Notes: generated by a model from the sequence alone, not told the origin. 64,000 nucleotides of DNA from Bryobacteraceae bacterium (GCA_025928545.1 JAICJH010000025.1:482-64481), one strand, 5' to 3'. Shown: positions 11,490 through 28,184, counted from the first letter of the stretch. Made by a program: numbers and translations.

Positions 11490-11885
11490 GAACCGGGCAC
11501 GTAAGCAACCCGTTCCCAGCCAGGTATCGCGAATATCGCCCGCTTGAGCGCCGCACTATGCCGAGCCGCGCGTGAGCCCGCGGCTCCCGAATAGGTATCG
11601 CGAATACTGCGCCTGTCGTCCACTTGACCACCGCACATGCCGATGCCGAGCCGAGCGTGTGAGCACGCGGTCCCGATTAGGGTCGCGAATGTCGCACGCC
11701 TATCGTCCACTTGACCACCGAAGTTGATAATCGGAACTAAAAACACTATGAACGTGCCGAGCCGCGCGCGTAAGCACGCCGCCACGTCCCTTCGGAACAT
11801 CGGAGCCACTGCCCGTGCGTTCAAGTGCTTTCCACGGAGCGGCTTCCAATTAGGTATCGGGCCTGTCGTCCGCCTGACCGACGCT
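11490..11885. repeat. Tandem degenerate ~85-nt hairpin-containing intergenic repeat (3 clear copies plus one divergent)
   Basis: TGCCGAGCCG occurs at 11559, 11644 and 11755. AGGTATCGCGAATA occurs at 11522 and 11593 (variants at 11679 and 11852). CCTGTCGTCCACTTGACCACCG occurs at 11612, 11699 and 11862 (variants). Each unit begins with a GC hairpin (for example GAGCCGCG-CGTGAGCC-CGCGGCTC). It lies between convergent gene ends. Confidence 0.8.
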
Positions 11886-14557: not shown

Positions 14558-16573
14558 TCACTGTTTTTGATCGATCTTCACGTTTCCCGTTTTATGCGTT
14601 CTTGCCCACGCCAGATTGTTGCGCGCGCGCTCATTGCCTGGATCCAGGCTGACGGCCTTCTCACCGGCGGCGATTGCATTGTCCCAATCGGAGACTGCGT
14701 TGTACGCCGCCGTGATATTGTTCCAGGCTACCGCATAATCGGGCCTCAGTTTTAGGGCCTCCTGGGAAGCGGCGATGGATTCCCGATATTTCCCGGCCTG
14801 AAACAACGCCAGCGACTCATTCACAAACGCCTCCGGAGTTGCCGCACTCGGCGTTCGAGCCGGGGCACTCTCGGCGCCCTTCCTCAGCCACGAATCGGCC
14901 ACGGAATCCGAAGGGAAGCGAAGACGTGTTTCCGTTGCGAGTTCACGCAGGCTGGCCGAGTCTCCCTGATTGGCGTAAACCTGCATGAGCAAATCCCTCG
15001 CATCCACATCGTCGGGGTTTCCGGCGATGGCAAGCTTCAGGTAGGTAATCGCCTCCACCGTTCGTCCCGTCTGATTGAGCCAGCGCCCGTAATAGAATCT
15101 CCCGCGCGCATCGGACGGCACCAGTTCCAGCGCCCGCAGGAAGTGGCGCTCGGCCTCCGCACTCCGATTTAGCCCGCCGTTGGCGATTCCCAGATTAATC
15201 TCAAGCGGGTAGTAGGCCGGGTCGAACACGGCCGCTCGCTCGAAATAGTCCAGCGCGATCCGGTATCTCCCCAGAGCCATTTGGCTCAGGCCGTAATTCA
15301 TGAGGCCGCGGCCGTTGGCCGGGCTTTTGATCGTCACGTCGTGCCAAAGCGATTCCGGCGTGTGCCAGACTTCGTTTCGTGCGTGCGCCCCATAGGCCGC
15401 GCCCGCCAGCACCACGGCGCAGACTCCCGCCACCACCGCGCGCGGTGGCGAAAGTCGATAGATCCACAATGCCAGTGCCCAACATACGCCGCAGGCCAGA
15501 CCCACGAATGGAAAGAACAGACGGTGATCGTTTTCAATTTCCGCGAGGGCAATCCAGGAAGTTGGCAGATTGGCTGCGAGAAACCAGAACAGGCCGAAGG
15601 CGATTGGACGGAATTCCCGGCGTTTGCGGCACCAAACGATTGCCGCGGCTATCAATAGAATGAAAACGAAGCCCCCGGCTACCCTTGGGTCGGTGAACGT
15701 TGTGTACGGCTGCCGGTCGGTGTCCGCACTCAGGTCGAGCGGCAGAAAGAAGCGCCGAAAATAACTGAACAGCACAGCGGGCTGAGAAATGCGGTAGCTG
15801 AAGTTGGAGCCGCCGGTGTCGAGCGTGCTCGCATTCATCGTCAGTACAAAGAAAGCCACGGCGCCCGTGGCGATAAATGCGGGCACGCTTTGGAGGATCG
15901 CCTGCTTGAGGTTCTCTTCCTCGAACAGCCAGATCCACGCCAGCAGAAGTACCGGAAAAATCGCCGCCGGCTGCTTGGCAAAAATTCCAGCCACCACCGG
16001 CGCAAGATACAAACCATACTTCCGCTTCTCCGGGGCCCAGATGTAGATCAGCAGCCCGGCGACCACCGCGAGCGTCGAGTACAGATCGGCCCGCTGCATG
16101 ATGTAGTTGATCGTCTCCGCCATCGCGGGATGAAGTCCGTACAACGCCGTCGCGAATAGAGCTGTCCAGACGTTGCGCGGATCCGGCAGGGCTGCGTCGA
16201 AAATTTTTCGAAACAGCAGCAGCATCACCCCGAGTTGCACAAGGTACCAGAAAAAGGTCGTGACGTGGAAAGCGACCGGGTTCAGCCCCTTCCCCAGCCA
16301 GTAATCGATCGCAAAAGTTACGGAGAGGAGCGGCCGGTACATTTGGTTGCCGGCAATGGCGTCATTGGTGCGGGCGTCTTTAAAAAACAGCGGAATATTG
16401 CTCAGATCCCGAATATAGGCGTTCTGCTGAATTGCGTAGAAGTCGTCGAACTGAAAGGAATTGCGGAAGTGATTGGAATACGTCAGCGTTACGCAGGCGC
16501 ACAGGATCAGGAATGCCAGGACAATCTCTCGCCGCGACGGTCGTTTCGGTGATCTGGGCCCGGAGGGTTTCAT
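14558..16573 (-). CDS. TMTC-like GT-C glycosyltransferase with C-terminal TPR array (DUF1736-type)
   Basis: After TM1 comes NSFQFDDFYAIQQN (the acidic DD loop seen in TMTC/PMT-type enzymes). About 11 TM helices are followed by ~300 aa of TPR. The last cassette matches the free-standing TPR paralogs. ATG 16573 is preferred (alternative 16621). The ORF-track N-terminal 114 aa are Arg-rich and run into argS. Confidence 0.8.
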   Translation of the reverse strand: MKPSGPRSPKRPSRREIVLAFLILCACVTLTYSNHFRNSFQFDDFYAIQQNAYIRDLSNIPLFFKDARTNDAIAGNQMYRPLLSVTFAIDYWLGKGLNPVAFHVTTFFWYLVQLGVMLLLFRKIFDAALPDPRNVWTALFATALYGLHPAMAETINYIMQRADLYSTLAVVAGLLIYIWAPEKRKYGLYLAPVVAGIFAKQPAAIFPVLLLAWIWLFEEENLKQAILQSVPAFIATGAVAFFVLTMNASTLDTGGSNFSYRISQPAVLFSYFRRFFLPLDLSADTDRQPYTTFTDPRVAGGFVFILLIAAAIVWCRKRREFRPIAFGLFWFLAANLPTSWIALAEIENDHRLFFPFVGLACGVCWALALWIYRLSPPRAVVAGVCAVVLAGAAYGAHARNEVWHTPESLWHDVTIKSPANGRGLMNYGLSQMALGRYRIALDYFERAAVFDPAYYPLEINLGIANGGLNRSAEAERHFLRALELVPSDARGRFYYGRWLNQTGRTVEAITYLKLAIAGNPDDVDARDLLMQVYANQGDSASLRELATETRLRFPSDSVADSWLRKGAESAPARTPSAATPEAFVNESLALFQAGKYRESIAASQEALKLRPDYAVAWNNITAAYNAVSDWDNAIAAGEKAVSLDPGNERARNNLAWARTHKTGNVKIDQKQ

Positions 16574-16904
16574 GCGGGGGGTGCGAAAACCAGTATTGCC
16601 TATTTTCAGCTTTATTCCCATTAGAATCAACACAAGTGTCTTTGAGCCATAAAACCGGCGTGCATACTGTAGGCATATGAAGAGAGTATTTCGCCATTTC
16701 GCCGGATCCCTCCCCCGCGGCCGAAAAAAATGCCGGTGCCGAGCGAACCCGCCAGGTACAACAAAACAAAGACTCGGCCTGTTTGGGAAAGCCATTTTTG
16801 GCCTCCCAGGACCCATTTTCAGGCCCGCCGAAACCGACGCACCCCAAAGCGGCCGCACCGCTCCGCCCTTCGGCACCCTGCCGCTGCTGGAGAGCTGACC
16901 CGCC

Positions 16905-18899
16905 ATGCCTCTCACACCCCGCTATACTCAAGTTTCCGTGTTCCTACAGCTAGAAAAACAAATCCAGGCCGCTTTCCGCGACGCCCTCAGCATCCGCTTC
17001 GGCATCGATTCCGAGATCGTCCTCGAACAGCCCAAACAGGCCTCTTTCGGCGAACTTGCCGTTCCCGTCGCCTTCCAACTCGCCCGCTCCCTTAAGCAGC
17101 CGCCCAAAAAAATCGCTACCGACCTCCTGGAGGCTGTGGGCGATATTCCCGGCGTCGCCGCCATGGAAGTGGCGGGCAATGGCTACATCAATCTGCGCCT
17201 CGACCGCGGCGCACTCGCTGCCAGCCTTCTGAAGCCGTCCGATGCCGCTGCCTCCCTGCCGTCCGACAAGACGATCGTCGAACACACCAACATCAATCCC
17301 AACAAGGCCGCCCACATCGGCCACCTGCGCAACGCGGTCCTTGGCGACACTTTCGTCCGCATGCTCCGCGCCTGCGGCAATCGGGTCGAAGTCCAGAACT
17401 ACATCGACAACACGGGAGTCCAGGTTGCCGACGTGGTCGCGGGTTTTCATTTTCTCGAATTGAAGACGCCGAAAGAAGTGGCGGCCCTCATCGCTCAGCC
17501 GCGCTTCGATTACCTCTGCTGGGACCTATACGCGCGCACCTCGCAGCATTACAAGGATCATCCCGAAGCCCTCGCCTGGCGCGCCGAAGTGCTTCATGGC
17601 GTCGAAGCCGGCGCCGGTGAACTATCGGAACTAGGTCATCTGGTAGCCGACGCCATCGTCAACCTCCATCTCGCGACGATGCTCCGCCTCAACGTCCAGT
17701 ACGACGTCCTGCCGCGCGAAAGCGAGATCCTCCACCTCAAGTTCTGGGCGTCGGCGTTTGAACTCCTCAAGGAACGCCGCGCGATTTACTTCGAAGAAGA
17801 AGGCAAGAACAAGGGCTGTTGGGTGATGCCGCCCTCCGCTTTCCGTGGCGCCGACGAGGCCAACGAAGACAGCAAGGTCATCGTCCGCTCCAATGGCACC
17901 GTCACCTACGTCGGCAAGGACATCGCCTACCAGCTCTGGAAATTCGGCCTCCTCGGCAAGGACTTCCATTACCGCGAGCTCGTCGAATACGCCGATGGCA
18001 AGAAGGTCTGGGTATCTACGGACCAGGCCCAGAACGCTCCGGATACACCGGAATTCGGCCGCGCCCGGACGGTTTACAACGTCATCGATACCCGCCAGTC
18101 GTATCTGCAGGACGTGGTGGTCGCAGGCCTCCGCGCGCTCGGTTTCGAAAAGCAGGCCGATCAGTCGATTCACTTCTCGTACGAGATGGTCGCGCTCTCA
18201 CCGCGCTGCTGCGCCGATCTTGGCATTGAGCTGTCCGAAGAGGATGCGAAGCGTCCCTACGTGGAAGTGTCCGGCCGCAAGGGCCTCGGCGTTAAAGCCG
18301 ATGACCTGATGGACAAACTGGTCGAGACTGCCATGCGTGAAGTTGCTTCCCGCCACCCGGAGGACAACGAAGCTGCTCAGTTGGCCGTCGCAACCGAGAT
18401 TGCCATGGGGGCGTTGCGTTACTTCCTGCTCAAGTTCACCCGGAACACCGTGATCGCGTTCGATTTCCAGGAAGCCCTCAGCTTTGAAGGCGAAACCGGC
18501 CCTTACGCGCAGTACGCCGCCGTGCGCGCCCGCAACATTTTCCGCAAGCTCGAAGATCGCGGCGAGGCTCTCCCGGACTTCTCATCCGTACTCACGCCCG
18601 CCGCCATGGACCGCCAACTCAAAGGCGAGGCGAACGACGAGCTCTGGCAAATCTTAATAGCCGCCGCAAAAGTCGATTCCGTCGTAGCCCGCGCGGTCAC
18701 AGCCGGAGAGCCGGCCCATGTCGCGAAATACGTCTTCCAGCTGGCTCAGACATTCAATCTCTTCTACCATCAGTTTCCCGTGTTGGCGGAGCCCGACCAT
18801 GAGCGCAAGGCCTTCCTGCTTTGGATGACGGAGTATCTCGCGCTTCAGCTGGAACGTACTTTATCGGTGCTGGGGATCGCTGTCCCGGCTTACATGTAG
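16905..18899 (+). CDS. argS: Arginine--tRNA ligase
   Basis: Class I HIGH motif NPNKAAHIGHLRN, the N-terminal Arg-tRNA-synthetase add-on domain, a C-terminal DALR-type anticodon domain, and a ...AYM end. Confidence 0.97.
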   Translation: MPLTPRYTQVSVFLQLEKQIQAAFRDALSIRFGIDSEIVLEQPKQASFGELAVPVAFQLARSLKQPPKKIATDLLEAVGDIPGVAAMEVAGNGYINLRLDRGALAASLLKPSDAAASLPSDKTIVEHTNINPNKAAHIGHLRNAVLGDTFVRMLRACGNRVEVQNYIDNTGVQVADVVAGFHFLELKTPKEVAALIAQPRFDYLCWDLYARTSQHYKDHPEALAWRAEVLHGVEAGAGELSELGHLVADAIVNLHLATMLRLNVQYDVLPRESEILHLKFWASAFELLKERRAIYFEEEGKNKGCWVMPPSAFRGADEANEDSKVIVRSNGTVTYVGKDIAYQLWKFGLLGKDFHYRELVEYADGKKVWVSTDQAQNAPDTPEFGRARTVYNVIDTRQSYLQDVVVAGLRALGFEKQADQSIHFSYEMVALSPRCCADLGIELSEEDAKRPYVEVSGRKGLGVKADDLMDKLVETAMREVASRHPEDNEAAQLAVATEIAMGALRYFLLKFTRNTVIAFDFQEALSFEGETGPYAQYAAVRARNIFRKLEDRGEALPDFSSVLTPAAMDRQLKGEANDELWQILIAAAKVDSVVARAVTAGEPAHVAKYVFQLAQTFNLFYHQFPVLAEPDHERKAFLLWMTEYLALQLERTLSVLGIAVPAYM

Positions 18900-20618: not shown

Positions 20619-20725
20619 GCCAGTCGGTAAGCTTTCAGCCTGCAAACCATCGATAATCTTGCGCCCGCCCCCGATTCTGCCTCACACTGACCTCAGTTGT
20701 TCTCATACTTTTGTTTGCATCACAG

Positions 20726-20758
20726 GCGGCCTCGTTTCGAAAGAGCGAGGCCGCTTTT
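20726..20758 (+). terminator. Second terminator-like hairpin, 20 nt upstream of the next gene
   Basis: GCGGCCTCG / CGAGGCCGC 9-bp stem, 11-nt loop, then TTTT. Confidence 0.5.
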
Positions 20759-20778
20759 GAAGTAGTAGGCTGGGAGTA

Positions 20779-21357
20779 GTGGACAACACCACCCCTCCGC
20801 ACATTCATCGGCCAGGCCTTCCCGTTTACGCGCTCGGAGGACTCCAGGCGGGCATCGTTGGAGTGGCCTGGATGTTCGTCTGTTTCATTGTCGCGGCACT
20901 CTGGAGCGGAGGCGGCATCTGGTCGGTGCCCAACCTTTTCGCAACGGTTTTCTACGGCGAGAACGCATGGCAGAACGAGTTTTTCCACTCCACATGGGCG
21001 GGGATCGCGCTGTTGGTCGTGATTTACGGCCTGATTGGAATTGTTTGGGGATGCATCTGGAAGCTGCACCGCGTTCCCCTGCTGTCGTTCTTTGGCACGC
21101 TGACAGGTCTGGCAACATACTTCTTCTTCTTCCACTTCATCTGGGCCCACACCTACCCGTTTATTCCGCTGTACGCGCCGCTTCGGGAGTTGCAGGTCGC
21201 GCACATTCTTTGGGGCGCGGCATTGGCGAAGTCGCCCGCCTACTCGGCCCGCATCGCGCGGGCGATCGCGCCTGTCTATACCCCGCCTGACAGCGGCGGC
21301 CCCGCTCCTCCAACTCAGGACGCAGCGGAGATTGTCAGCGGAGAACTGATCCAGTAA
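20779..21357 (+). CDS. Hypothetical integral membrane protein (about 5 TM)
   Basis: GTG start after GGGAG. Hydrophobic helices (IVGVAWMFVCFIVAALW, IALLVVIYGLIGIVWGCIW, LTGLATYFFFFHFIW). The long antisense ORF 20635..21819 is rejected. Confidence 0.7.
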   Translation: MDNTTPPHIHRPGLPVYALGGLQAGIVGVAWMFVCFIVAALWSGGGIWSVPNLFATVFYGENAWQNEFFHSTWAGIALLVVIYGLIGIVWGCIWKLHRVPLLSFFGTLTGLATYFFFFHFIWAHTYPFIPLYAPLRELQVAHILWGAALAKSPAYSARIARAIAPVYTPPDSGGPAPPTQDAAEIVSGELIQ

Positions 21358-21653
21358 AGCGGCCGATCGCGAAGCAGCTCTCTGCTGAAGGCTTTTGAAC
21401 TTTGCTCGAGCACGCAGGTCCGATTGCCGCTCCTGCCGGTCACCGTCACTCTGCCGCCTGTGGACTTCGTGACCCGATACGCTGTCCGGGCTCCGCCATG
21501 GATCGCCGCCGCCTCCAGAGACAACGGCGATTCCATGACGAAATGCAGCCCACCATCCGGACGGATCAGCAGCGCGAAGTCGTTCGGCTCCGCATTGCCG
21601 TCGGACCGGGCAACGTCGAAAAGTTCCTGGGCGTTCTCGAGAAAGGCGTCCAC
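21315..21653 (-). CDS. Hypothetical 112-aa protein, last gene of the CHAT/ECF operon
   Basis: Lies 30 nt downstream of the anti-sigma gene on the same strand. Balanced composition. Its 3' end overlaps the convergent membrane-protein gene by 43 nt. Confidence 0.55.
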   Translation of the reverse strand: MDAFLENAQELFDVARSDGNAEPNDFALLIRPDGGLHFVMESPLSLEAAAIHGGARTAYRVTKSTGGRVTVTGRSGNRTCVLEQSSKAFSRELLRDRPLYWISSPLTISAAS

Positions 21654-21683
21654 AGTGGAGCTTATCGGCGCGGAGGTGGGAGT

Positions 21684-22268
21684 TTAGAGGGTGACGCGGA
21701 AGCCGTACTCGTGGAGCAGCTTTCCCGCTCCGTCGTAGAGGCGAACGAAGTACGTGCCGGGCGCCAGTTCCCGGGCAATCTTCGCTTCGGGCGAGGTGGC
21801 ATTGAGCGGGCCGCTCCACATGGATCCTCCGGCTGAATCGACCACTTCCAGGCGAAGCGAGGTTTCATGCGGCGCATCCGTCAGGCTGATATCCGTTTCC
21901 CTGGACTGACGCACCGATGGCGTCTCGCCGCGGATTGCCGTGAGATGCACGGAGGCGATTGGCCCCAAATTGTGCGGGGAATGGGTGTACAAGATCAAGG
22001 CCAGGGCCAACGAGGCAAAGACCGCAGCCGCCGCGAAGGACCATCGCGGCAGGGCTGGCCACAGCCGGAAACTGCGCGCCGGGGGCTCGGTGGAAATGGC
22101 TTCGCGCATCGCCAATGAGAACGCCTCTATTTCATCCAGCCGCTCCTGACAAGCGACGCAGATGAGAAGGTGTTCTTCGACGGCTGCCGTACTCTGCTCC
22201 GGCAGACGACCGAGAGCATAGAGTTCGAGTTGGTCGTCGGATTGGTGTGGACCCGCCAAAATCGACAT
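21684..22268 (-). CDS. Zinc-binding (ZAS, zf-HC2) single-pass anti-sigma factor
   Basis: HxxxCxxC motif EEHLLICVACQERL, a TM (WSFAAAAVFASLALALILY) and a ~100 aa extracytoplasmic tail. ATG 22268 is preferred. GTG 22307 (2 nt after the sigma stop) is possible. Confidence 0.8.
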   Translation of the reverse strand: MSILAGPHQSDDQLELYALGRLPEQSTAAVEEHLLICVACQERLDEIEAFSLAMREAISTEPPARSFRLWPALPRWSFAAAAVFASLALALILYTHSPHNLGPIASVHLTAIRGETPSVRQSRETDISLTDAPHETSLRLEVVDSAGGSMWSGPLNATSPEAKIARELAPGTYFVRLYDGAGKLLHEYGFRVTL

Positions 22269-22309
22269 CGTTAAAACAATAGTGGCAGGCGTCCGAAAAC
22301 TTCTCACAT

Positions 22310-22969
22310 TTATTTATTTCGGCGTGCTTCGTCGGCCAACCTCTTGCCAAGTTTTCCGAATCTGGCTTTCGCTCGCGACTTCAACAGACGGAATTGGTTG
22401 TAGCTGAGGCCCATCTCCTGGCAAATGCGTTCCTGGGGTTGTTCCAAAAGGTAAAACCTGTGCAGAATCTCGCGATCGCGCCGGGATACACCGTGGAACA
22501 CCCGGCGGGCGATTTCCGCGCGCTGGCGGGAGAGCAGATTCTGCTCCGGGTTGTTTTTCCAGTCGGAGACGGAGAAAACGGAGTCCTCGAACTCCACGGT
22601 AGTACGGCGCCGGACCACAGCTTCCTCGATGCTGGCCGCGATATGGCGTCGCACGATGGTGCGGACGTAGCCCATGAGGCGAGCGGGATCGCGGAGTTCA
22701 CCCGAGCGGATCGCTTCCGTAACCACGACAAAGCAATCGTGTACGCGGTCGTCAAGATCTTCCATACCGAGCGACCGGAGCAGCAAATACCGGATGCCGC
22801 GTGTGAACACTGTGTACAACTCCGTCATTGCGAGGGGATCGCCCGCCCGGATGCGGTCGACCGTGCCGGGCCAGTCCGGGATATCAAAGGCAGGGTCGGC
22901 AACGCCCGCCAGTTGCGGAGAGTCTTGCTCTTCCATAACTCTTTCAGGAGAATCGGGGTCCGTGATCAC
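22310..22969 (-). CDS. ECF-type RNA polymerase sigma-70 family factor
   Basis: Region 2 (LYTVFTRGIRYLLLRSL...DDRVHDCFVVV) and region 4 HTH (REILHRFYLLEQPQERICQEMGLSYNQFRLLKSRA). GTG 22969 is preceded by GAGGAG. ATG 22936 is an alternative. Confidence 0.9.
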   Translation of the reverse strand: MITDPDSPERVMEEQDSPQLAGVADPAFDIPDWPGTVDRIRAGDPLAMTELYTVFTRGIRYLLLRSLGMEDLDDRVHDCFVVVTEAIRSGELRDPARLMGYVRTIVRRHIAASIEEAVVRRRTTVEFEDSVFSVSDWKNNPEQNLLSRQRAEIARRVFHGVSRRDREILHRFYLLEQPQERICQEMGLSYNQFRLLKSRAKARFGKLGKRLADEARRNK

Positions 22970-22988
22970 TTCTGAAGATCTCCTCGCA

Positions 22989-25397
22989 TCAGATTCGACT
23001 CAGCAGGAAGTATCCCGCCCAAACCAACGGCCGGCTATCTCGCCCGGAATGCAGCGCGGCTAACTGAGCTTCCCGGAGGGCGGCGGCCGGGTTTCCATGA
23101 GCAGACCCACGGAGGGCGCGATAGAAATCGACCATGACCGTCTGCGCGGGTTCATCCGGAATATTCCAGCGGGTGGAAATTACCGCATTTGCGCCCGCCC
23201 CGATCCAGGCTCTGGTTAAACCCATCAGGCCCGATGCCGGGAGCGCGTTGCCTTGCCCGGAGTGACAGCCATTCATTACCACCAGCGCCCCATTCAGGCG
23301 TCGTGCGGCGATGTCCTGAGGCCCCATCAGCCCAATGGCGCCGTTGGCGTCGAGGGCCAACGCAAGCAACCCGGAACCGAATTGACCGGGAGCGCGAACC
23401 ACATGAGTTGCGAAATGGATGGCGGCGGGCGAAGAGGACAGGGCGGATTCGACAGCGCCGATATTTGCCGCTGCGCCGGTCAGCACCTGCCTGGAGCCGG
23501 AGTTCCATTCGAGTGAGCACGCAGCCAGTTCAACGGCTGTATTCGGCAGGCGCGGAAGGGTGATGGCTTTGTTTTGCGCAGCCCCCCGGGAACCGCGGTA
23601 GCGTGGATCCGCCTCGTTGAACACCGGGTCTCCAATACCGACGAACGAGCCACCCGAGGCGACAACGCCTCGTTTCAGCAGGAGTGCACCGGGAATCGTC
23701 TGCAATGCGGCATTCTCAATGAGAAAACGAGATTGGCCGTCGTTATTTGCAACGGGAAGGGCTGCGAACGGCAACTCATGAAGGGGACCATCCGGTTCGA
23801 GGAGCCAATGTTTATGGGCCAAAGCCGCAGCAGGAACTTTTCCGAAGAGACTTTGCCAGAGACACTTTCCCGCAGGCGTGGAATCGCGGCCGTCCTGGAG
23901 GGCGCGGTTGAAAGTCTGGACTTCACGGTCGAGCTGCGCGCGGTCCGGCAAAGAGAAGACGCGCATTTGCCGGTTATCGACCACCCATAGCCAGGAGCCG
24001 GTATCGGTGATGGAAAAGCTGAAGAGGACCGTATCGGAGTCCAGTGTTTTTTCAACATGCCTCGAAGGCTGGTTATTGTCCGGGCTGGAGCGTGCCGCGG
24101 CACCGGCGGCAGCCTCTTCCAGTTGCAGGCGCATTTCCAGATCCACTGCTTCAGTTGCCGCCGGGCTATGCTCTGCCGGCGACGCCTGCGCAAGCAGAGA
24201 ACGCTCCACCGCCTGAAACCTGGCGAGCAATTCCCAATAGTCGGCGGGCAATCTGGAGCGCCAGTCGCTGGTTTCCGGCACCGTTGCGCGAAGGCTCCAG
24301 AGGCGGTCCTGCTCGGCGGCATCGAAAGTTTCCGCCAGAAGAACGCGATTGCGGCTTTGGACTGCAAGACGGTTTCCGGCGTCCACCAAACCGTCGAAGA
24401 TCTGGCTGACGCGGTTCTCCAGCGCGATTCGATCCTGGTCGGCGGGAACGATATCGGCGCGCATAACTGTGGCGAGACGTCGCGCTTCGCGAAAATCACG
24501 GAGCGCAGCGTTCGTGTGGCCTGACTCAAGGCGGATTCTGGCACGATCCAGGTAAACCATCCAGCGAGGGGTGAAGGTTTCATGAGCGTCAAGCGCGTCC
24601 TGAAGCAGGTATTCGGCCCGGGCGTAGTCTCCCTGCTTTGCCCTCAGCCTGGCGAGGCCGGTCAGGGCACTGGTGGCTGCCTTCAGTCGATGGGTTCTGG
24701 TCAACCGCAGCGATTCGTTGAGGGCCGGTTCCGCGTCGGCATACCGGCCGGCGTCGATGTACTTGTGGCCCAGTCCAGCCCAGCTTCTGGCGGCGGTATC
24801 CAGGTCACCGGTTTCCACCAGCAACCCAAGCGACTGTCGGTACAACGGTTCCGCCTCCGGCAGCCTGCCCAGGGTGGCGAGAGCCTGTGCTTCCTGATAA
24901 AGAAGCTTTGCGCGCGTGCCGGCGTGTGCATGCCCGGCAGGTCCTGCGAGGGCCTCGCGGGCCAGACGAAGCGCCTGGTCGGGCACTCCCATCTGGAGAT
25001 AGACCCCGGTCAGATTGTTGAGCGCATAAATGAGAGGCACCATTTCGCCGGAACGTTGCGCGACGAGACGAGCGCGGGTCAGATCGGTCAGGGCCGGGCC
25101 GTATTGCATGAGGAGGACGGAGGCAAAACCGGCATTGCTCCAGTTCATGGCTTCATCGCGCTGGAGACCGGCGAGGAAGGCGCCGGATGCGGCGGCCCGA
25201 TATGCTTCCCTCGCATCCAGATACCGACCGGCCGAAAACGCGGCCATGCCGAGCGTGTGCAGGCGCTTAATTTCGGAAAGCGACGGTTTGCCGGCCAGAG
25301 ATGAAGGATTCGCCGGATTTCGCAGGGAACCTGCCAGCGAGAGCGCCAGCAGAGTTGACCCAGTGACGGCGCCGAACAACACGAGTTTTTTCGGCAC
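22989..25397 (-). CDS. Secreted or anchored TPR + CHAT (caspase-like) protease
   Basis: N-terminal signal/anchor MPKKLVLFGAVTGSTLLALSLAG. A long TPR-like helical repeat region. The C-terminal CHAT domain has His (AIHFATHV) and Cys (LVVMNGCHSGQG). GTG start after AGAGG. Confidence 0.9.
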   Translation of the reverse strand: MPKKLVLFGAVTGSTLLALSLAGSLRNPANPSSLAGKPSLSEIKRLHTLGMAAFSAGRYLDAREAYRAAASGAFLAGLQRDEAMNWSNAGFASVLLMQYGPALTDLTRARLVAQRSGEMVPLIYALNNLTGVYLQMGVPDQALRLAREALAGPAGHAHAGTRAKLLYQEAQALATLGRLPEAEPLYRQSLGLLVETGDLDTAARSWAGLGHKYIDAGRYADAEPALNESLRLTRTHRLKAATSALTGLARLRAKQGDYARAEYLLQDALDAHETFTPRWMVYLDRARIRLESGHTNAALRDFREARRLATVMRADIVPADQDRIALENRVSQIFDGLVDAGNRLAVQSRNRVLLAETFDAAEQDRLWSLRATVPETSDWRSRLPADYWELLARFQAVERSLLAQASPAEHSPAATEAVDLEMRLQLEEAAAGAAARSSPDNNQPSRHVEKTLDSDTVLFSFSITDTGSWLWVVDNRQMRVFSLPDRAQLDREVQTFNRALQDGRDSTPAGKCLWQSLFGKVPAAALAHKHWLLEPDGPLHELPFAALPVANNDGQSRFLIENAALQTIPGALLLKRGVVASGGSFVGIGDPVFNEADPRYRGSRGAAQNKAITLPRLPNTAVELAACSLEWNSGSRQVLTGAAANIGAVESALSSSPAAIHFATHVVRAPGQFGSGLLALALDANGAIGLMGPQDIAARRLNGALVVMNGCHSGQGNALPASGLMGLTRAWIGAGANAVISTRWNIPDEPAQTVMVDFYRALRGSAHGNPAAALREAQLAALHSGRDSRPLVWAGYFLLSRI

Positions 25398-25414
25398 CAG
25401 AGCCTCTGGAAGAC

Positions 25415-25451
25415 CGGTGGTAGTCCAGCCAAAAGGCCGGGACTACCACCG
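25415..25451 (-). promoter_or_regulatory. Strong 12-bp hairpin in the leader just upstream of the CHAT gene start
   Basis: CGGTGGTAGTCC (25415-25426) pairs with GGACTACCACCG (25440-25451). A second small hairpin CCAGAG/CTCTGG covers the AGAGG ribosome-binding site. Confidence 0.5.
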
Positions 25452-25557
25452 ATTCTAGCAGAGAATGGGTATTAAAAAGCACATTTCTAAAAAGAATGGC
25501 TGTACCCAACCGGATGGGTCCGGTTATTTTGCGGAGATGCGTTCTGTTAACGCATTA

Positions 25558-25626
25558 TCAGAGGCCCAGAAGGGTGAAGATGTCGCCGACGCCGCCTGTG
25601 GGGTCGGGATCGCTTTTTACAGTCAT
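25558..25626 (-). CDS. Micro-ORF, 22 aa (MTVKSDPDPTGGVGDIFTLLGL), upstream of the CHAT operon
   Basis: A near-consensus SD GGAAGGAGA ends 5 nt before the ATG (25626). Double stop TGATAA. GC3 is about 70%, like real genes. Hairpins follow at 25537-25555 and 25508-25525. It falls below the ORF-track length cutoff. Confidence 0.45.
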   Translation of the reverse strand: MTVKSDPDPTGGVGDIFTLLGL

Positions 25627-25846
25627 AGGTTCTCCTTCCGCTATCCGTAGTCAAACCGGATCGCAATTCCACTGTGCACTATGGAATTCGAGCTGGATAG
25701 TTAACTTGTTGAATCCATTAAGAAAGAAAGTTGTGACTGAGAAATTGGCTTCGATTGGACTTCGCAAAACCCTATTTGTTTCAACAAACTGCTTTCGCGG
25801 CACCTGTGTTTTGTGTTAAGGTTTCAGTTCCACGCTGTTTTCAGCT

Positions 25847-26287
25847 ATGGCATCCGACACCGGTTCAAGCGGAATTCTCGATCAGAACTACCCATCTACT
25901 CTGGAAAGTGTGGACGTGGTTGAGGCAGATATCCTGAAAGCCGCTGTTGGGGCAGGCTTTGGTGAAGATGAACAGCACGAAATCGGGATGGCGGTGCGTG
26001 AATGCATGGTCAACGCTGTGGTGCATGGGAACCGCTATAACAAGAACAAGCACGTTCACGTAAAGGTGACGAAGTCCGCGGAGGACTTCGAAATTCGGAT
26101 TACGGATCAGGGAGAAGGGTTCGAAACGGAACGCGTGCCGGATCCGCTGGACGAGTCGAATATCCTGCGCCACTCTGGCCGGGGCTTATTCTTAATGGGG
26201 GCCTTTATGGACGATGTAAAGGTCGAGAAAGCTTCTCCTTCGGGAACGGAAGTGACTTTACGCAAGAAAGTTGTGCGCCCGCAATGA
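25847..26287 (+). CDS. RsbW/SpoIIAB-like anti-sigma serine kinase (HATPase_c_2)
   Basis: N-box ECMVNAVVHGN, G1 ITDQGEGF, G2 GRGLFLMGAFMD. 146 aa. Confidence 0.85.
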   Translation: MASDTGSSGILDQNYPSTLESVDVVEADILKAAVGAGFGEDEQHEIGMAVRECMVNAVVHGNRYNKNKHVHVKVTKSAEDFEIRITDQGEGFETERVPDPLDESNILRHSGRGLFLMGAFMDDVKVEKASPSGTEVTLRKKVVRPQ

Positions 26288-26440
26288 CGGAGTATCCTGG
26301 GCTTATGGCGGCTGCTTTATGGCTGCGCCGCGACGGGATTAAGTCCGTGAGGGCGGCGCGATGGGATTGAACTGCCGAAAGGCGGCCTGGAATTTTGACC
26401 GCGGCGCGGTCGAAGCAAATCATGTGAGGAGAAAAGAGTA

Positions 26441-26785
26441 GTGAGCGCTAAACTGAATACCCGCGAAGTAGGTGACGTAACAGTAGTCGATGTTTCCGGC
26501 CGAATCACACTCGGCGAAGGGTCAAGCGCCATGCGCGACACTCTGCGCGAGCTGGTGGCTGCCGGTAAGAAGAAGGTCCTGCTGAATCTGAGCGATGTCA
26601 GTTACATTGACAGTTCCGGCATCGGCGAACTTGTATCGGGGTTTACAACGGTCGCAAATGCGGGCGGAACCCTGAAACTGCTCGGGCTGACGAAGCGCGT
26701 GAAAGATCTGCTGCAGATCACCAAGCTTTATACGGTGTTCGATGTGCACGAAGAAGAAGCGCACGCAGTTCGCAGTTTCGCCTGA
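26441..26785 (+). CDS. STAS-domain anti-sigma-factor antagonist (RsbV/SpoIIAA-like)
   Basis: VLLNLSDVSYIDSSGIGELV (phosphorylatable Ser context DSSG). 114 aa. GTG after GAGGAG. Confidence 0.88.
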   Translation: MSAKLNTREVGDVTVVDVSGRITLGEGSSAMRDTLRELVAAGKKKVLLNLSDVSYIDSSGIGELVSGFTTVANAGGTLKLLGLTKRVKDLLQITKLYTVFDVHEEEAHAVRSFA

Positions 26786-26813
26786 GCACCTGAAATTTTT
26801 GTAAGGATCTGAA

Positions 26814-26848
26814 GCCGGGTTCGCTGCTTGCGGGCCCGGCATTTTGTA
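26814..26848 (+). terminator. Terminator-like hairpin after the STAS gene
   Basis: GCCGGGTTCGC / GCGGGCCCGGC (11 bp including two G-U pairs), then ATTTTGTATT. Confidence 0.55.
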
Positions 26849-26977
26849 TTGGCGCCTGGGTGGTGGGGAAACGACAGAATGGCCGCCGATTCACGCCGAT
26901 GCACGCCGATCAGGCTGTGCCCGATGAACCGTAACCATTTCACGTCTTTCGACGAAGTCTCTGAAAAGGGGTAATGT

Positions 26978-27514
26978 GTGACCCCTTCCCCGGAGATATT
27001 AATGGCCAGGTACCAGCAAGGCGACGCCGCGGCTGCGGGGATGCTGGTGGACGCGCTGAGTCCGCCGATCTTCCGGTTTTTTCTGGGTCAGGTGCGCAGC
27101 CGGGAACTGGCTGACGATCTGCTTCAGGATTTCTGGCTGCGGATTCATACCGCGCGCCACACGTATCGCGCTCCCGAGCCGGTGCTGCCGTGGATGTATG
27201 CGATTGCCCGTCGCGTCCGCATCGACCAGTACCGCAAGTCCCGGAACCGCTCCGGCCGCGAACTCCAGATGGAAAAGCTTCCCGAAGTGGCGGCGCAGGA
27301 AGCCAGTGAAGCAGGCAACGTGGATTTCGAGACGCTGCTCGCCGCTCTGCCTGAAAGTCAGCGGGAAGTGATTGTCATGTTGAAAGTCTCCGGGCTTAGC
27401 GTGGAAGAAGTCGCGAGAGCTACGGGAAGCTCAGCCGGTTCGGTTAAGCAGAAGGCACATCGCGCGTACGAAAAGCTGCGCACGTTGTTGACGGGGGCCG
27501 GGCATGCAGTTTGA
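26978..27514 (+). CDS. ECF-type sigma-70 family factor
   Basis: Region 2 DDLLQDFWLRIHTARHTY ... PWMYAIARRVRIDQYRK. Region 4 REVIVMLKVSGLSVEEVARATGSSAGSVKQKAHRA. Start is GTG 26978 or ATG 27002. Confidence 0.9.
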   Translation: MTPSPEILMARYQQGDAAAAGMLVDALSPPIFRFFLGQVRSRELADDLLQDFWLRIHTARHTYRAPEPVLPWMYAIARRVRIDQYRKSRNRSGRELQMEKLPEVAAQEASEAGNVDFETLLAALPESQREVIVMLKVSGLSVEEVARATGSSAGSVKQKAHRAYEKLRTLLTGAGHAV

Positions 27515-28184
27515 AGTTCCGGAGCGGATTGCCGGCGCTACTCCCGATTCAGCCAGCGTGACCCGGGCTCGTGAAAGGCTCGCGAAATCAGCCGCCCCGG
27601 TGCGGGCATTGCCGTCCGACCTGATGCTGATGCTGACTCTCGCAGGTGTTCTTGATGTGCTGGCGGTGCTTCTTGCCATCCCGGTCGGGTTTGCGGGTCT
27701 GTCGAAAATGACTGCCATGCAGGTTTTGGTGGAGTTTTCCCTGCTCTCACTGTTGGCACTGGTTCTGGCCGGTGTTGCGGTCGCGCAGATGATTCCGGGT
27801 TCGCGGCGGGTTATTTCTCCGCCAGCGGGCGCGCTGATGGCCTGCCTGCTGCTGAGCACTACCGCGGCGCTGCTTTTTCCGGATTTCGCGACGCAGAATT
27901 TCGTGGAACGCGGGATCCCCTGTTTACGCCTCGGCATGATTTGCGCGCTGCCAGGTTCGCTCTGCATTTGGGGGATGATGCGGCGAGGTCTGGTAGTGAA
28001 CTCTTTGCAGGCAGCGACTGCCGGAGGAGCTTTGGCCGGGCTCATGGGCATCGGCGTCCTTGCCCTGCATTGCCCGATCTTCAATGCTGCGCATATTATT
28101 GTCTGGCACGTGGCGGTGCTTGCCGTAACAGCCGCGACCGGTGCTGTTCTCGCACTGGGGCTTTCATACGCCGAGTTGCCATAA
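27504..28184 (+). CDS. Six-TM putative anti-sigma factor, NrsF/DUF1109-like
   Basis: Overlaps the sigma gene stop by 11 nt. About 6 TM helices. Conserved-looking Cys and His (IPCLRLGMICALPGSLC, LALHCPIFNAAHIIVWH), as in DUF1109 proteins paired with ECF sigmas. Confidence 0.6.
   Translation: MQFEVPERIAGATPDSASVTRARERLAKSAAPVRALPSDLMLMLTLAGVLDVLAVLLAIPVGFAGLSKMTAMQVLVEFSLLSLLALVLAGVAVAQMIPGSRRVISPPAGALMACLLLSTTAALLFPDFATQNFVERGIPCLRLGMICALPGSLCIWGMMRRGLVVNSLQAATAGGALAGLMGIGVLALHCPIFNAAHIIVWHVAVLAVTAATGAVLALGLSYAELP

Follow-up and report, generated by a model that had tools for sequence, protein, structure and literature searches.

In the sigma-E system of Escherichia coli, the anti-sigma factor RseA is cut by DegS, the site-1 protease, and by RseP, the site-2 protease. 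In Myxococcus xanthus, a single protein, DdvA, carries a zinc anti-sigma domain, one transmembrane (TM) helix and a periplasmic TPR-CHAT region, and is encoded beside the gene for DdvS, a sigma factor of the extracytoplasmic function (ECF) type (PMC6061681; PMC11506125). The CHAT domain of DdvA was suggested in 2018 to mediate anti-sigma inactivation (PMC6061681), and was proposed in 2024 to be the site-1 protease, acting by trans-autoproteolysis in the dimer before RseP (PMC11506125). DdvA forms an arrow-shaped dimer with an active site that is incomplete, without three helices, and has CHCC as its zinc ligands; removal of TPR-CHAT turns it into an RseP substrate (PMC11506125). The fused architecture was reported from Myxococcota and a single Comamonas only; DdvA itself does not belong to the Cas proteins, and some of the DdvA-like pairs are located away from defence genes (PMC11506125). 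In Craspase, of type III-E clustered regularly interspaced short palindromic repeats (CRISPR) systems, Cas7-11 is joined by the TPR-CHAT protein Csx29; Csx30 is cleaved and CASP-sigma is released (PMC10028731). SAVED-CHAT/PCaspase and CalpL/CalpT/CalpS (type III-B CRISPR) are further protease-controlled sigma/anti-sigma modules (bioRxiv 10.1101/2023.06.23.546230). Here we analyzed a stretch of 64,000 nucleotides from a Bryobacteraceae bacterium (GCA_025928545.1, JAICJH010000025.1:482-64481; hereafter the window, with positions counted from its first letter), the minus strand of which encodes a micropeptide, a TPR-CHAT protein, an ECF-type sigma factor and a zinc anti-sigma (ZAS) factor. We regard this locus as an acidobacterial variant of the DdvA-DdvS switch in which the fused protein is split in two.

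An earlier note, made by a model from the sequence alone, had described five closely packed minus-strand open reading frames (ORFs) at this locus, and the ORF listing and translations confirmed their coordinates and spacing together with the motifs AIHFATHV, NGCHSGQG and HLLICVAC. The first is a micro-ORF of 22 amino acids (MTVKSDPDPTGGVGDIFTLLGL; 25558-25626), identified by the ORF listing and by its conservation as a family. It is followed by the gene for the TPR-CHAT protein (22989-25397, 802 amino acids from a GTG start, with Pfam CHAT and TPR matches) and, 19 nucleotides after this, by that for the divergent ECF-type sigma factor (22310-22969, 219 amino acids from GTG). The ZAS anti-sigma ORF, with a zf-HC2 match, occupies 21684-22307 (207 amino acids from GTG). 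The gap between the sigma and anti-sigma genes is 2 nucleotides with this GTG or 41 nucleotides with the ATG at 22268; the latter gives the 194-amino-acid protein of the public record (P0121) and is the likely start. The fifth ORF encodes a small protein that is described below with the neighboring genes.

Related loci were sought by scanning one genome per species, which gave 55 true loci, all of them from metagenome-assembled genomes of Bryobacterales/Terriglobia (Acidobacteriota). The CHAT gene was followed by the sigma gene in about 48 of these loci and, directly downstream of sigma, by the ZAS anti-sigma gene in 44–45, on the same strand and with small gaps. This order was present wherever downstream DNA exists, with one locus (L011) as the sole exception, and it was retained even where CHAT identity was as low as 29–35%. 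Clustering of the ORFs in the flanks showed that only the module genes were common, while the surroundings varied by genome. The gene arrangement, shared by about 48 independent genomes, is far beyond chance. The micropeptide gene and a structured leader, TPR-CHAT, sigma and anti-sigma are co-inherited across the Bryobacterales. The adjacency of CHAT, sigma and anti-sigma genes in about 48 of the 55 loci, between flanks that differ, also bears out the reading of the earlier note that these genes belong together.

The module proteins are abundant in sequence databases. In metagenomes, over 7,500 clusters (90% identity) were matched by the sigma profile, and the 120 matches listed were near-identical Bryobacterales sequences only. 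The anti-sigma profile matched 213 representatives at 50% identity (E ≤ 1e-30), and the TPR-CHAT protein has more than 278 homologs of about 800 amino acids, which are labelled merely 'CHAT domain-containing protein'.

Domain searches supported the assignments of the earlier note. CHAT (PF12770) was matched over residues 509–798 of the 802-amino-acid protein (E = 2e-47; 162.5 bits, where the cutoff is 24; covering positions 3–286 of the 289 in the profile), several TPR families were matched over residues ~120–310, and zf-HC2 was matched above its cutoff in the anti-sigma factor (25.2 bits against 22.2). The layout of the TPR-CHAT protein is thus read as a hydrophobic signal or anchor segment at residues ~5–24, a TPR region at ~40–310, a helical linker, and CHAT at 509–798. 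Residues H661, H665 and C711 were invariant in 28 full-length homologs and in 47 CHAT domains, some of which were 34–40% identical. When a profile of the full-length protein was compared with the PDB the output was swamped by TPR matches, but after trimming to the CHAT domain the search became informative. It gave one significant match to a solved structure, residues 827–978 of DdvA (8rot_B, E = 1.5e-6), with H665 aligned on H862 and C711 on C907, the catalytic dyad of DdvA. Separases matched weakly in this search (E ~0.13) and Csx29 was not matched. A Foldseek comparison of full-length type retrieved Csx29 (8eey_B, E = 2.4e-7, 712 columns), Craspase, DdvA (E = 1.3e-5, 793 columns) and separase. 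The H665/C711 dyad, which the earlier note had read as intact from its motifs, is invariant and aligned with the DdvA catalytic pair; it is intact and at the canonical CHAT positions, making the protein a predicted protease.

In 95/108 full-length homologs the N-terminus opens with basic residues, after which comes a hydrophobic segment of about 15–17 residues (consensus AIIGSTLxALSLxGS), and no second TM-like segment was found in any of the 108. The conservation of this segment was similar to that of the mature protein, which we take to favor a retained membrane anchor rather than a cleaved signal peptide. A lipoprotein was also considered; in some distant homologs a Cys stands close to where the segment ends, yet few fit a canonical lipobox and this option was rejected.

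The sigma gene lies directly 3' of the CHAT gene, and its products share 47–84% identity among loci, with a conserved core that begins near residue 25. Its assignment as an ECF sigma factor in the earlier note was upheld in part: Sigma70_r4_2 was matched (E = 1e-3), while TIGR02937 reached 41.1 bits and so fell below its cutoff of 42.9. Among 45 orthologs, Sigma70_r4_2 was matched in 45/45 and Sigma70_r2 in 9/45 (E < 0.01), and comparison with ECF sigma factors of the PDB gave weak matches. On these profiles the protein is predicted to be a divergent ECF-like sigma factor. CHAT is not mentioned in the main text of the ECF reclassification paper (PMC7826278).

In the anti-sigma factor, the zinc ligand motif H-x24-H-x3-C-x2-C (H8, H33, C37 and C40 in P0121) was invariant or nearly so. 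Profile comparison gave weak matches to ChrR, RslA and DdvA, of which the ChrR and RslA-type domains were the best, and a search with the N-terminal part likewise matched DdvA weakly (E = 0.04). By these features the protein is of the class I ZAS type, with predicted zinc and sigma binding. An AlphaFold2 (AF2) model, with an alignment built from database homologs, had a predicted local distance difference test score (pLDDT) of 87. It comprises a three-helix zinc domain (residues 11–60), a TM helix (75–95), an 8-residue linker and a periplasmic immunoglobulin (Ig)-like beta-sandwich of about 90 amino acids (104–193), in agreement with the single TM helix and extracytoplasmic tail expected by the earlier note. 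Together with the N-terminal segment of the CHAT protein, this topology places the protease and the anti-sigma tail on the same predicted side of the membrane, as the note had also supposed. Foldseek matched the sandwich to generic Ig-like folds only. Thirteen stretches of a 2522-amino-acid protein (P0459) match the Ig-like domain of the anti-sigma factor (profile positions 136–182), indicating that this beta-sandwich also serves elsewhere as a repeat module.

A juxtamembrane stretch, S-(V/L)-x-L-T-A-(I/M)-R-G (for example SVHLTAIRG), ranked with the best-conserved 9-mers of the whole anti-sigma protein. Its R113-G114 is invariant and lies in the first, juxtamembrane, loop of the sandwich. Some clan CD proteases, for example separase, cleave after Arg (PMC11506125). 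The LTA(I/M)R-G loop is therefore a candidate CHAT cleavage site. The anti-sigma family is ~190–230 amino acids in length, and there were no CHAT fusions among its best 150 matches when a library holding 1.84 billion representatives was searched.

The similarities to DdvA are a zinc anti-sigma domain, a single TM helix, a TPR-CHAT dyad and an ECF sigma neighbor, with CHAT domains that are homologous (E = 1.5e-6). In contrast to DdvA, the TPR-CHAT part is here a separate protein of 802 amino acids with its own N-terminal anchor, and the sigma gene stands between it and the anti-sigma gene. The anti-sigma factor, of about 200 amino acids, bears an Ig-like periplasmic domain that DdvA lacks, and its first zinc ligand is His where DdvA has CHCC. 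Cleavage would occur between two proteins, whereas autoproteolysis in a dimer is proposed for DdvA. The host belongs to the Acidobacteriota, there is no defence island nearby, and the locus has an additional micropeptide and structured leader. The GTAA-N16-CGT promoter of DdvS also differs from the candidate promoter found here (see below).

Craspase shares the TPR-CHAT fold and the logic of a protease that frees a sigma factor, but it is cytoplasmic and RNA-guided, and its inhibitor is Csx30/Csx31 rather than a membrane ZAS anti-sigma factor. The present protein starts with a segment for export or anchoring, and it does not match Csx29 at the level of sequence. The earlier note had regarded the locus as an envelope-facing counterpart of Craspase; DdvA is the closer analog, as it is DdvA rather than Csx29 that the CHAT profile picks out by sequence, and what remains of that comparison is the likeness to Csx29 at the level of the fold. 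RseA/DegS resembles the locus in having a single-pass anti-sigma factor with a periplasmic domain, an anchored periplasmic site-1 protease with a peptide-binding sensor, and release of an ECF sigma factor. DegS is, however, a serine protease with a PDZ domain, whereas the protein here is a clan CD cysteine protease of the CHAT type with TPRs, encoded in the sigma operon. A CHAT protease also stands atop one of the SAVED-CHAT and Calp cascades, but these systems are cytoplasmic, activated by cyclic oligoadenylate, linked to CRISPR or CBASS (antiphage signaling systems based on cyclic oligonucleotides), and without a membrane anti-sigma factor. The claim of the note that a proteolytic sigma switch had not been described for CHAT proteins outside CRISPR lacks support in that form, in view of the DdvA proposals (PMC6061681; PMC11506125). 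Full-text literature searches turned up no account of a periplasmic TPR-CHAT protein that has its own gene beside an ECF/anti-sigma pair. What is new is the split architecture in Acidobacteriota; the concept is already published.

The micro-ORF, which the note had listed, proved to be a member of a conserved micropeptide family upstream of most homologs. Upstream DNA is available for 50 loci, and most of these have a homologous ORF of 13–25 codons that ends 125–270 nucleotides before the CHAT start. A profile of the family matched about 30 loci at E < 0.01, and distant loci had weaker-scoring variants with the same pattern, M-x(0-4)-[D/E/G][D/E/G]-P-(I/V)x4-G-x-(F/L) (for example MGDDPIIIIGSFLGL, and MGFGPVVIIIPDLF in distant loci). 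These ORFs typically start with ATG and are preceded by a purine-rich stretch resembling a Shine-Dalgarno sequence, which in the window is GGAAGGAGA (25631-25639). The peptide had no match in Pfam or NCBIfam. Entropy in the core codons was 0.86, 0.61 and 1.26 at positions 1, 2 and 3. This coding-type substitution pattern supports translation of the micro-ORF, because third codon positions vary most and the Ile codons change synonymously. The core (25570-25612, minus strand) encodes D-P-I-I-I-I-G by the codons GAT CCG ATC ATC ATC ATC GG and can also fold, as CCGAT...ATCGG in most loci and as a compensated CCGAC...GTCGG in the window. An RNA hairpin as the sole explanation of the micro-ORF was considered and dropped on account of the variable third positions and the synonymous Ile codons. 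The micro-ORF may be under both peptide and RNA-structure constraint.

Downstream of the micro-ORF, the leader contains, in the direction of the CHAT gene, hairpins H1, H2 and H3, a box (CTCTGnTAGAcT), hairpin H4 and a small helix at the Shine-Dalgarno sequence. H1 (ATGCGTT-AACAG-AACGCAT, 25537-25555) begins 2 nucleotides past the micro-ORF stop codon. In the leader alignment it has a conserved loop, (A/C)ACAG(A), with 96% of cells paired and 3/6 pairs changed on both sides. H2 (ACCGGA-ccca-TCCGGT, 25509-25524) is represented by a CCGG...CCGG stem in nearly all aligned leaders. The H3 of other loci is replaced in the window by an insertion that bears a weak terminator-like stem (GGTTG-ggta-CAGCC, 25498-25511, from a terminator scan) followed by the T-run ATTCTTTTTA; the lineage of the window might thus use attenuation in the stretch that separates the micro-ORF from CHAT. 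H4 (GGTGGTAGTCC...GGACTACCACC, 25416-25450) has 87% of cells paired and 5/8 pairs changed on both sides. Taken together, H1, H3 and H4 had 89.6% of cells paired, compared with 25–47% in slid controls, and double changes in 13/19 pairs; 0/500 shuffles reached the observed values. The leader is conserved and structured, with covarying hairpins. Rfam has no family for it, and the window gave no match at gathering score.

Two further hairpins flank this region. H0 (ATCCG-gtttgacta-CGGAT, 25643-25661), read from the sequence just 5' of the Shine-Dalgarno stretch of the micro-ORF, has equivalents with a GGTTnCGGCAA-like loop in many loci. A small hairpin seen by eye (CCAGA-ggc-TCTGG, 25397-25409) encloses the Shine-Dalgarno sequence of CHAT and touches its GTG, and CCAG..CTGG or CCGG..CCGG was likewise seen directly before the GTG in many loci. 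The micro-ORF and the hairpins probably set the expression level of the operon by a leader-peptide type of control.

Candidate promoter elements were found at two places. Upstream of the micro-ORF, anchored views revealed a conserved AGTCACA (25732-25738) and TGGATTCAA (25709-25717), which together span 25709-25738 on the minus strand and may serve the module as promoter or operator; the pair can be written as GTCAC-N16-G(G/T)(A/T)TTC. GTTTTCA-type 7-mers were present in about 20/45 upstream regions. Across loci, (G/T)TCACA or TTGACA stood 14 or ~24 nucleotides before TGTTTTCAA, at ~90–110 nucleotides 5' of the micro-ORF; with two spacings for the GTCACA/TGTTTTCAA pair there is no confident -35/-10 assignment. 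The exact pattern was not found elsewhere in the window, and a scan for sigma-70 consensus promoters gave nothing relevant. The second place is the box CTCTGCTAGAAT (25452-25463), directly 5' of H4, which resembles an extended -10 element (TGnTAGAnT) and may act as one. It occurs once in the window, and each of the 13 loci with an exact match has one copy at the same place and nowhere else. If the box is a -10 element, the CHAT mRNA would have H4 as its 5'-proximal stem.

These observations can be accommodated in an envelope switch, similar to DdvA-DdvS but split, in which CHAT cuts the anti-sigma factor and the sigma factor is freed. This is the reading that we prefer, and we hold it tentatively, as one that has a little less chance of being right than of being wrong. 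The TPR-CHAT protein would be exported and tethered at the periplasmic face by its N-terminal segment, whilst the zinc domain of the anti-sigma factor would hold sigma in the cytoplasm, with the Ig-like domain displayed on the periplasmic side. The signal that activates CHAT would probably be a protein or peptide to which the TPR array binds; CHAT would then cleave the periplasmic part of the anti-sigma factor in trans, with the juxtamembrane LTA(I/M)R-G loop as the candidate site. A site-2 protease and subsequently cytoplasmic proteases would complete removal of the anti-sigma factor, and the released sigma would transcribe its regulon, to which its own operon probably belongs. The central step, CHAT as site-1 protease of the anti-sigma factor, is plausible. 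That DdvA unites a zinc anti-sigma domain, a TM helix and TPR-CHAT in one polypeptide supports a linked function of the corresponding proteins here.

Several points weigh against this switch. The dyad mutants of DdvA had no phenotype in the absence of signal (PMC11506125). Export of TPR-CHAT to the periplasmic side is predicted from hydrophobicity alone, and in the AF2 model of this protein the TPR part is good while the catalytic core is poor (pLDDT < 50 for residues 663–749). The invariant R-G stands at the edge of the beta-sandwich, and its conservation could be purely structural. In L011 (7836-12010) the micro-ORF and TPR-CHAT gene are present and the sigma and anti-sigma genes are not adjacent, which may reflect loss, relocation, or a role of CHAT that is independent of the sigma/anti-sigma pair. 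In this locus CHAT is followed by a convergent gene for a secreted esterase-like protein of ~500 amino acids. Lastly, being the first gene in a sigma operon fits CHAT as an output equally well, and sequence does not separate a trigger of sigma from its output.

If CHAT is such an output, the anti-sigma factor would detect stress of the envelope or of the redox state in some other way. Once free, sigma would raise expression of its own operon, and the exported protease would degrade or process periplasmic or foreign proteins. We regard this as the most serious of the alternatives, though unlikely. CHAT is not only the first but the largest gene of the operon; nothing beyond the operon is conserved, so that the operon may be the main regulon; and within the loci the conserved box was found upstream of CHAT only. 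The invariant dyad also agrees with an output, as it would with any active protease. What speaks for the switch instead is that TPR-CHAT in DdvA is physically part of the anti-sigma factor, which argues for a role in signaling rather than as an effector, and that the ~90-amino-acid Ig-like tail has no recognizable sensing domain.

TPR-CHAT could also act at the anti-sigma factor without cutting it, as an RseB-like sensor or co-anti-sigma factor on the Ig-like tail, which would be shielded from, or exposed to, another site-1 protease; alternatively, its cleavage activity would be directed at itself or at the micropeptide. TPR arrays are protein-binding scaffolds, the co-conserved micropeptide could be a ligand or pseudo-substrate, and RseP is sterically blocked by the bulky TPR-CHAT of DdvA (PMC11506125). 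However, the dyad is invariant in 47/47 CHAT domains, which points to selection for catalysis, and the micropeptide has no signal peptide that would take it to the periplasm. We consider a non-cleaving role improbable.

Slightly less probable again is that the module is a sensor of phages or other invaders, as proposed for DdvA, with a sigma factor that turns on distant defence genes. The case for it is homology and analogy of architecture to DdvA, which controls a CBASS/CRISPR island. Against this, no conserved defence genes stand beside the module, and the four module proteins had no match in PADLOC. A tandem-repeat search found no CRISPR-like array in the window, as the earlier note had also stated. 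The neighboring ORFs examined, which did not extend to every ORF of the window, encode housekeeping proteins or other sigma regulators, with no Cas7-11 among them, and many DdvA-like pairs are also found away from defence genes.

Most ZAS-motif anti-sigma factors are not redox sensors, and a cytoplasmic zinc domain that is itself the true input, as an RsrA-like thiol/redox switch with CHAT merely co-transcribed, is very unlikely despite the conserved H-x3-C-x2-C and upstream His and the ChrR and RslA-type best profile matches, since co-inheritance of CHAT over ~48 species, down to 29% identity, would be difficult to account for if no functional link existed.

Returning to the envelope switch, the micropeptide and leader might be integral to it, either through the hydrophobic peptide as a partner specific to the TPR-CHAT or anti-sigma pair (a ligand embedded in the membrane, or a securin-like pseudo-substrate by which the protease is gated), or through its translation being read by the hairpins to tune expression of the operon. 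We consider this extension rather unlikely; if true, it would add to the abundant soil Acidobacteriota a peptide-gated type of ECF sigma switch that is new as a class, together with a family of RNA leaders that is also new.

The genes around the module were also examined. The fifth ORF of the locus (21315-21653, minus strand), 30 nucleotides after the anti-sigma ORF, encodes a protein of 112 amino acids with no assigned function and no match in Pfam or NCBIfam. A tblastn search over the related loci found its gene, with 60–65% identity, only in L001, L002, L004 and L029; it is a lineage-specific addition confined to the four closest relatives. A plus-strand gene for a multi-TM membrane protein of 192 amino acids (20779-21357) converges on this ORF with a slight overlap and has 52–60% identity in the same four relatives. 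A 394-amino-acid ORF at 20635-21819 (minus strand) looks like a shadow frame. On the other side, a cluster of sigma regulators (25847-28184, plus strand) is divergent from the micro-ORF. It comprises, from motifs seen by eye, an RsbW-like kinase/anti-sigma factor (25847-26287) and a STAS anti-anti-sigma factor (26441-26785, 96–98% identical in the closest relatives), followed by a second, canonical ECF sigma factor (26978-27514) and an NrsF-type anti-sigma factor (27504-28184). The RsbW-like and STAS genes stand beside the module only in the 3–4 closest relatives. Further away, a second large TPR protein of 785 amino acids (14558-16915, minus strand) has TPRs at residues 537–773 and no Pfam match in its N-terminal 530 residues, and an unrelated 87-nucleotide tandem repeat (1.9 copies, 82% matches) lies at 11558-11720.

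A site-1 role for a periplasmic CHAT protease has been proposed since 2018, in a system where protease and substrate are one polypeptide. The locus described here is a natural split version, with separate small genes for protease and substrate, so that trans cleavage could be assayed directly and the genetics would be clean. Its micropeptide and structured leader are new and unannotated elements of a kind that standard annotation would overlook. The Bryobacterales-type Acidobacteriota, in which the module is abundant (more than 7,500 sigma clusters), are a dominant soil group of which little is understood.

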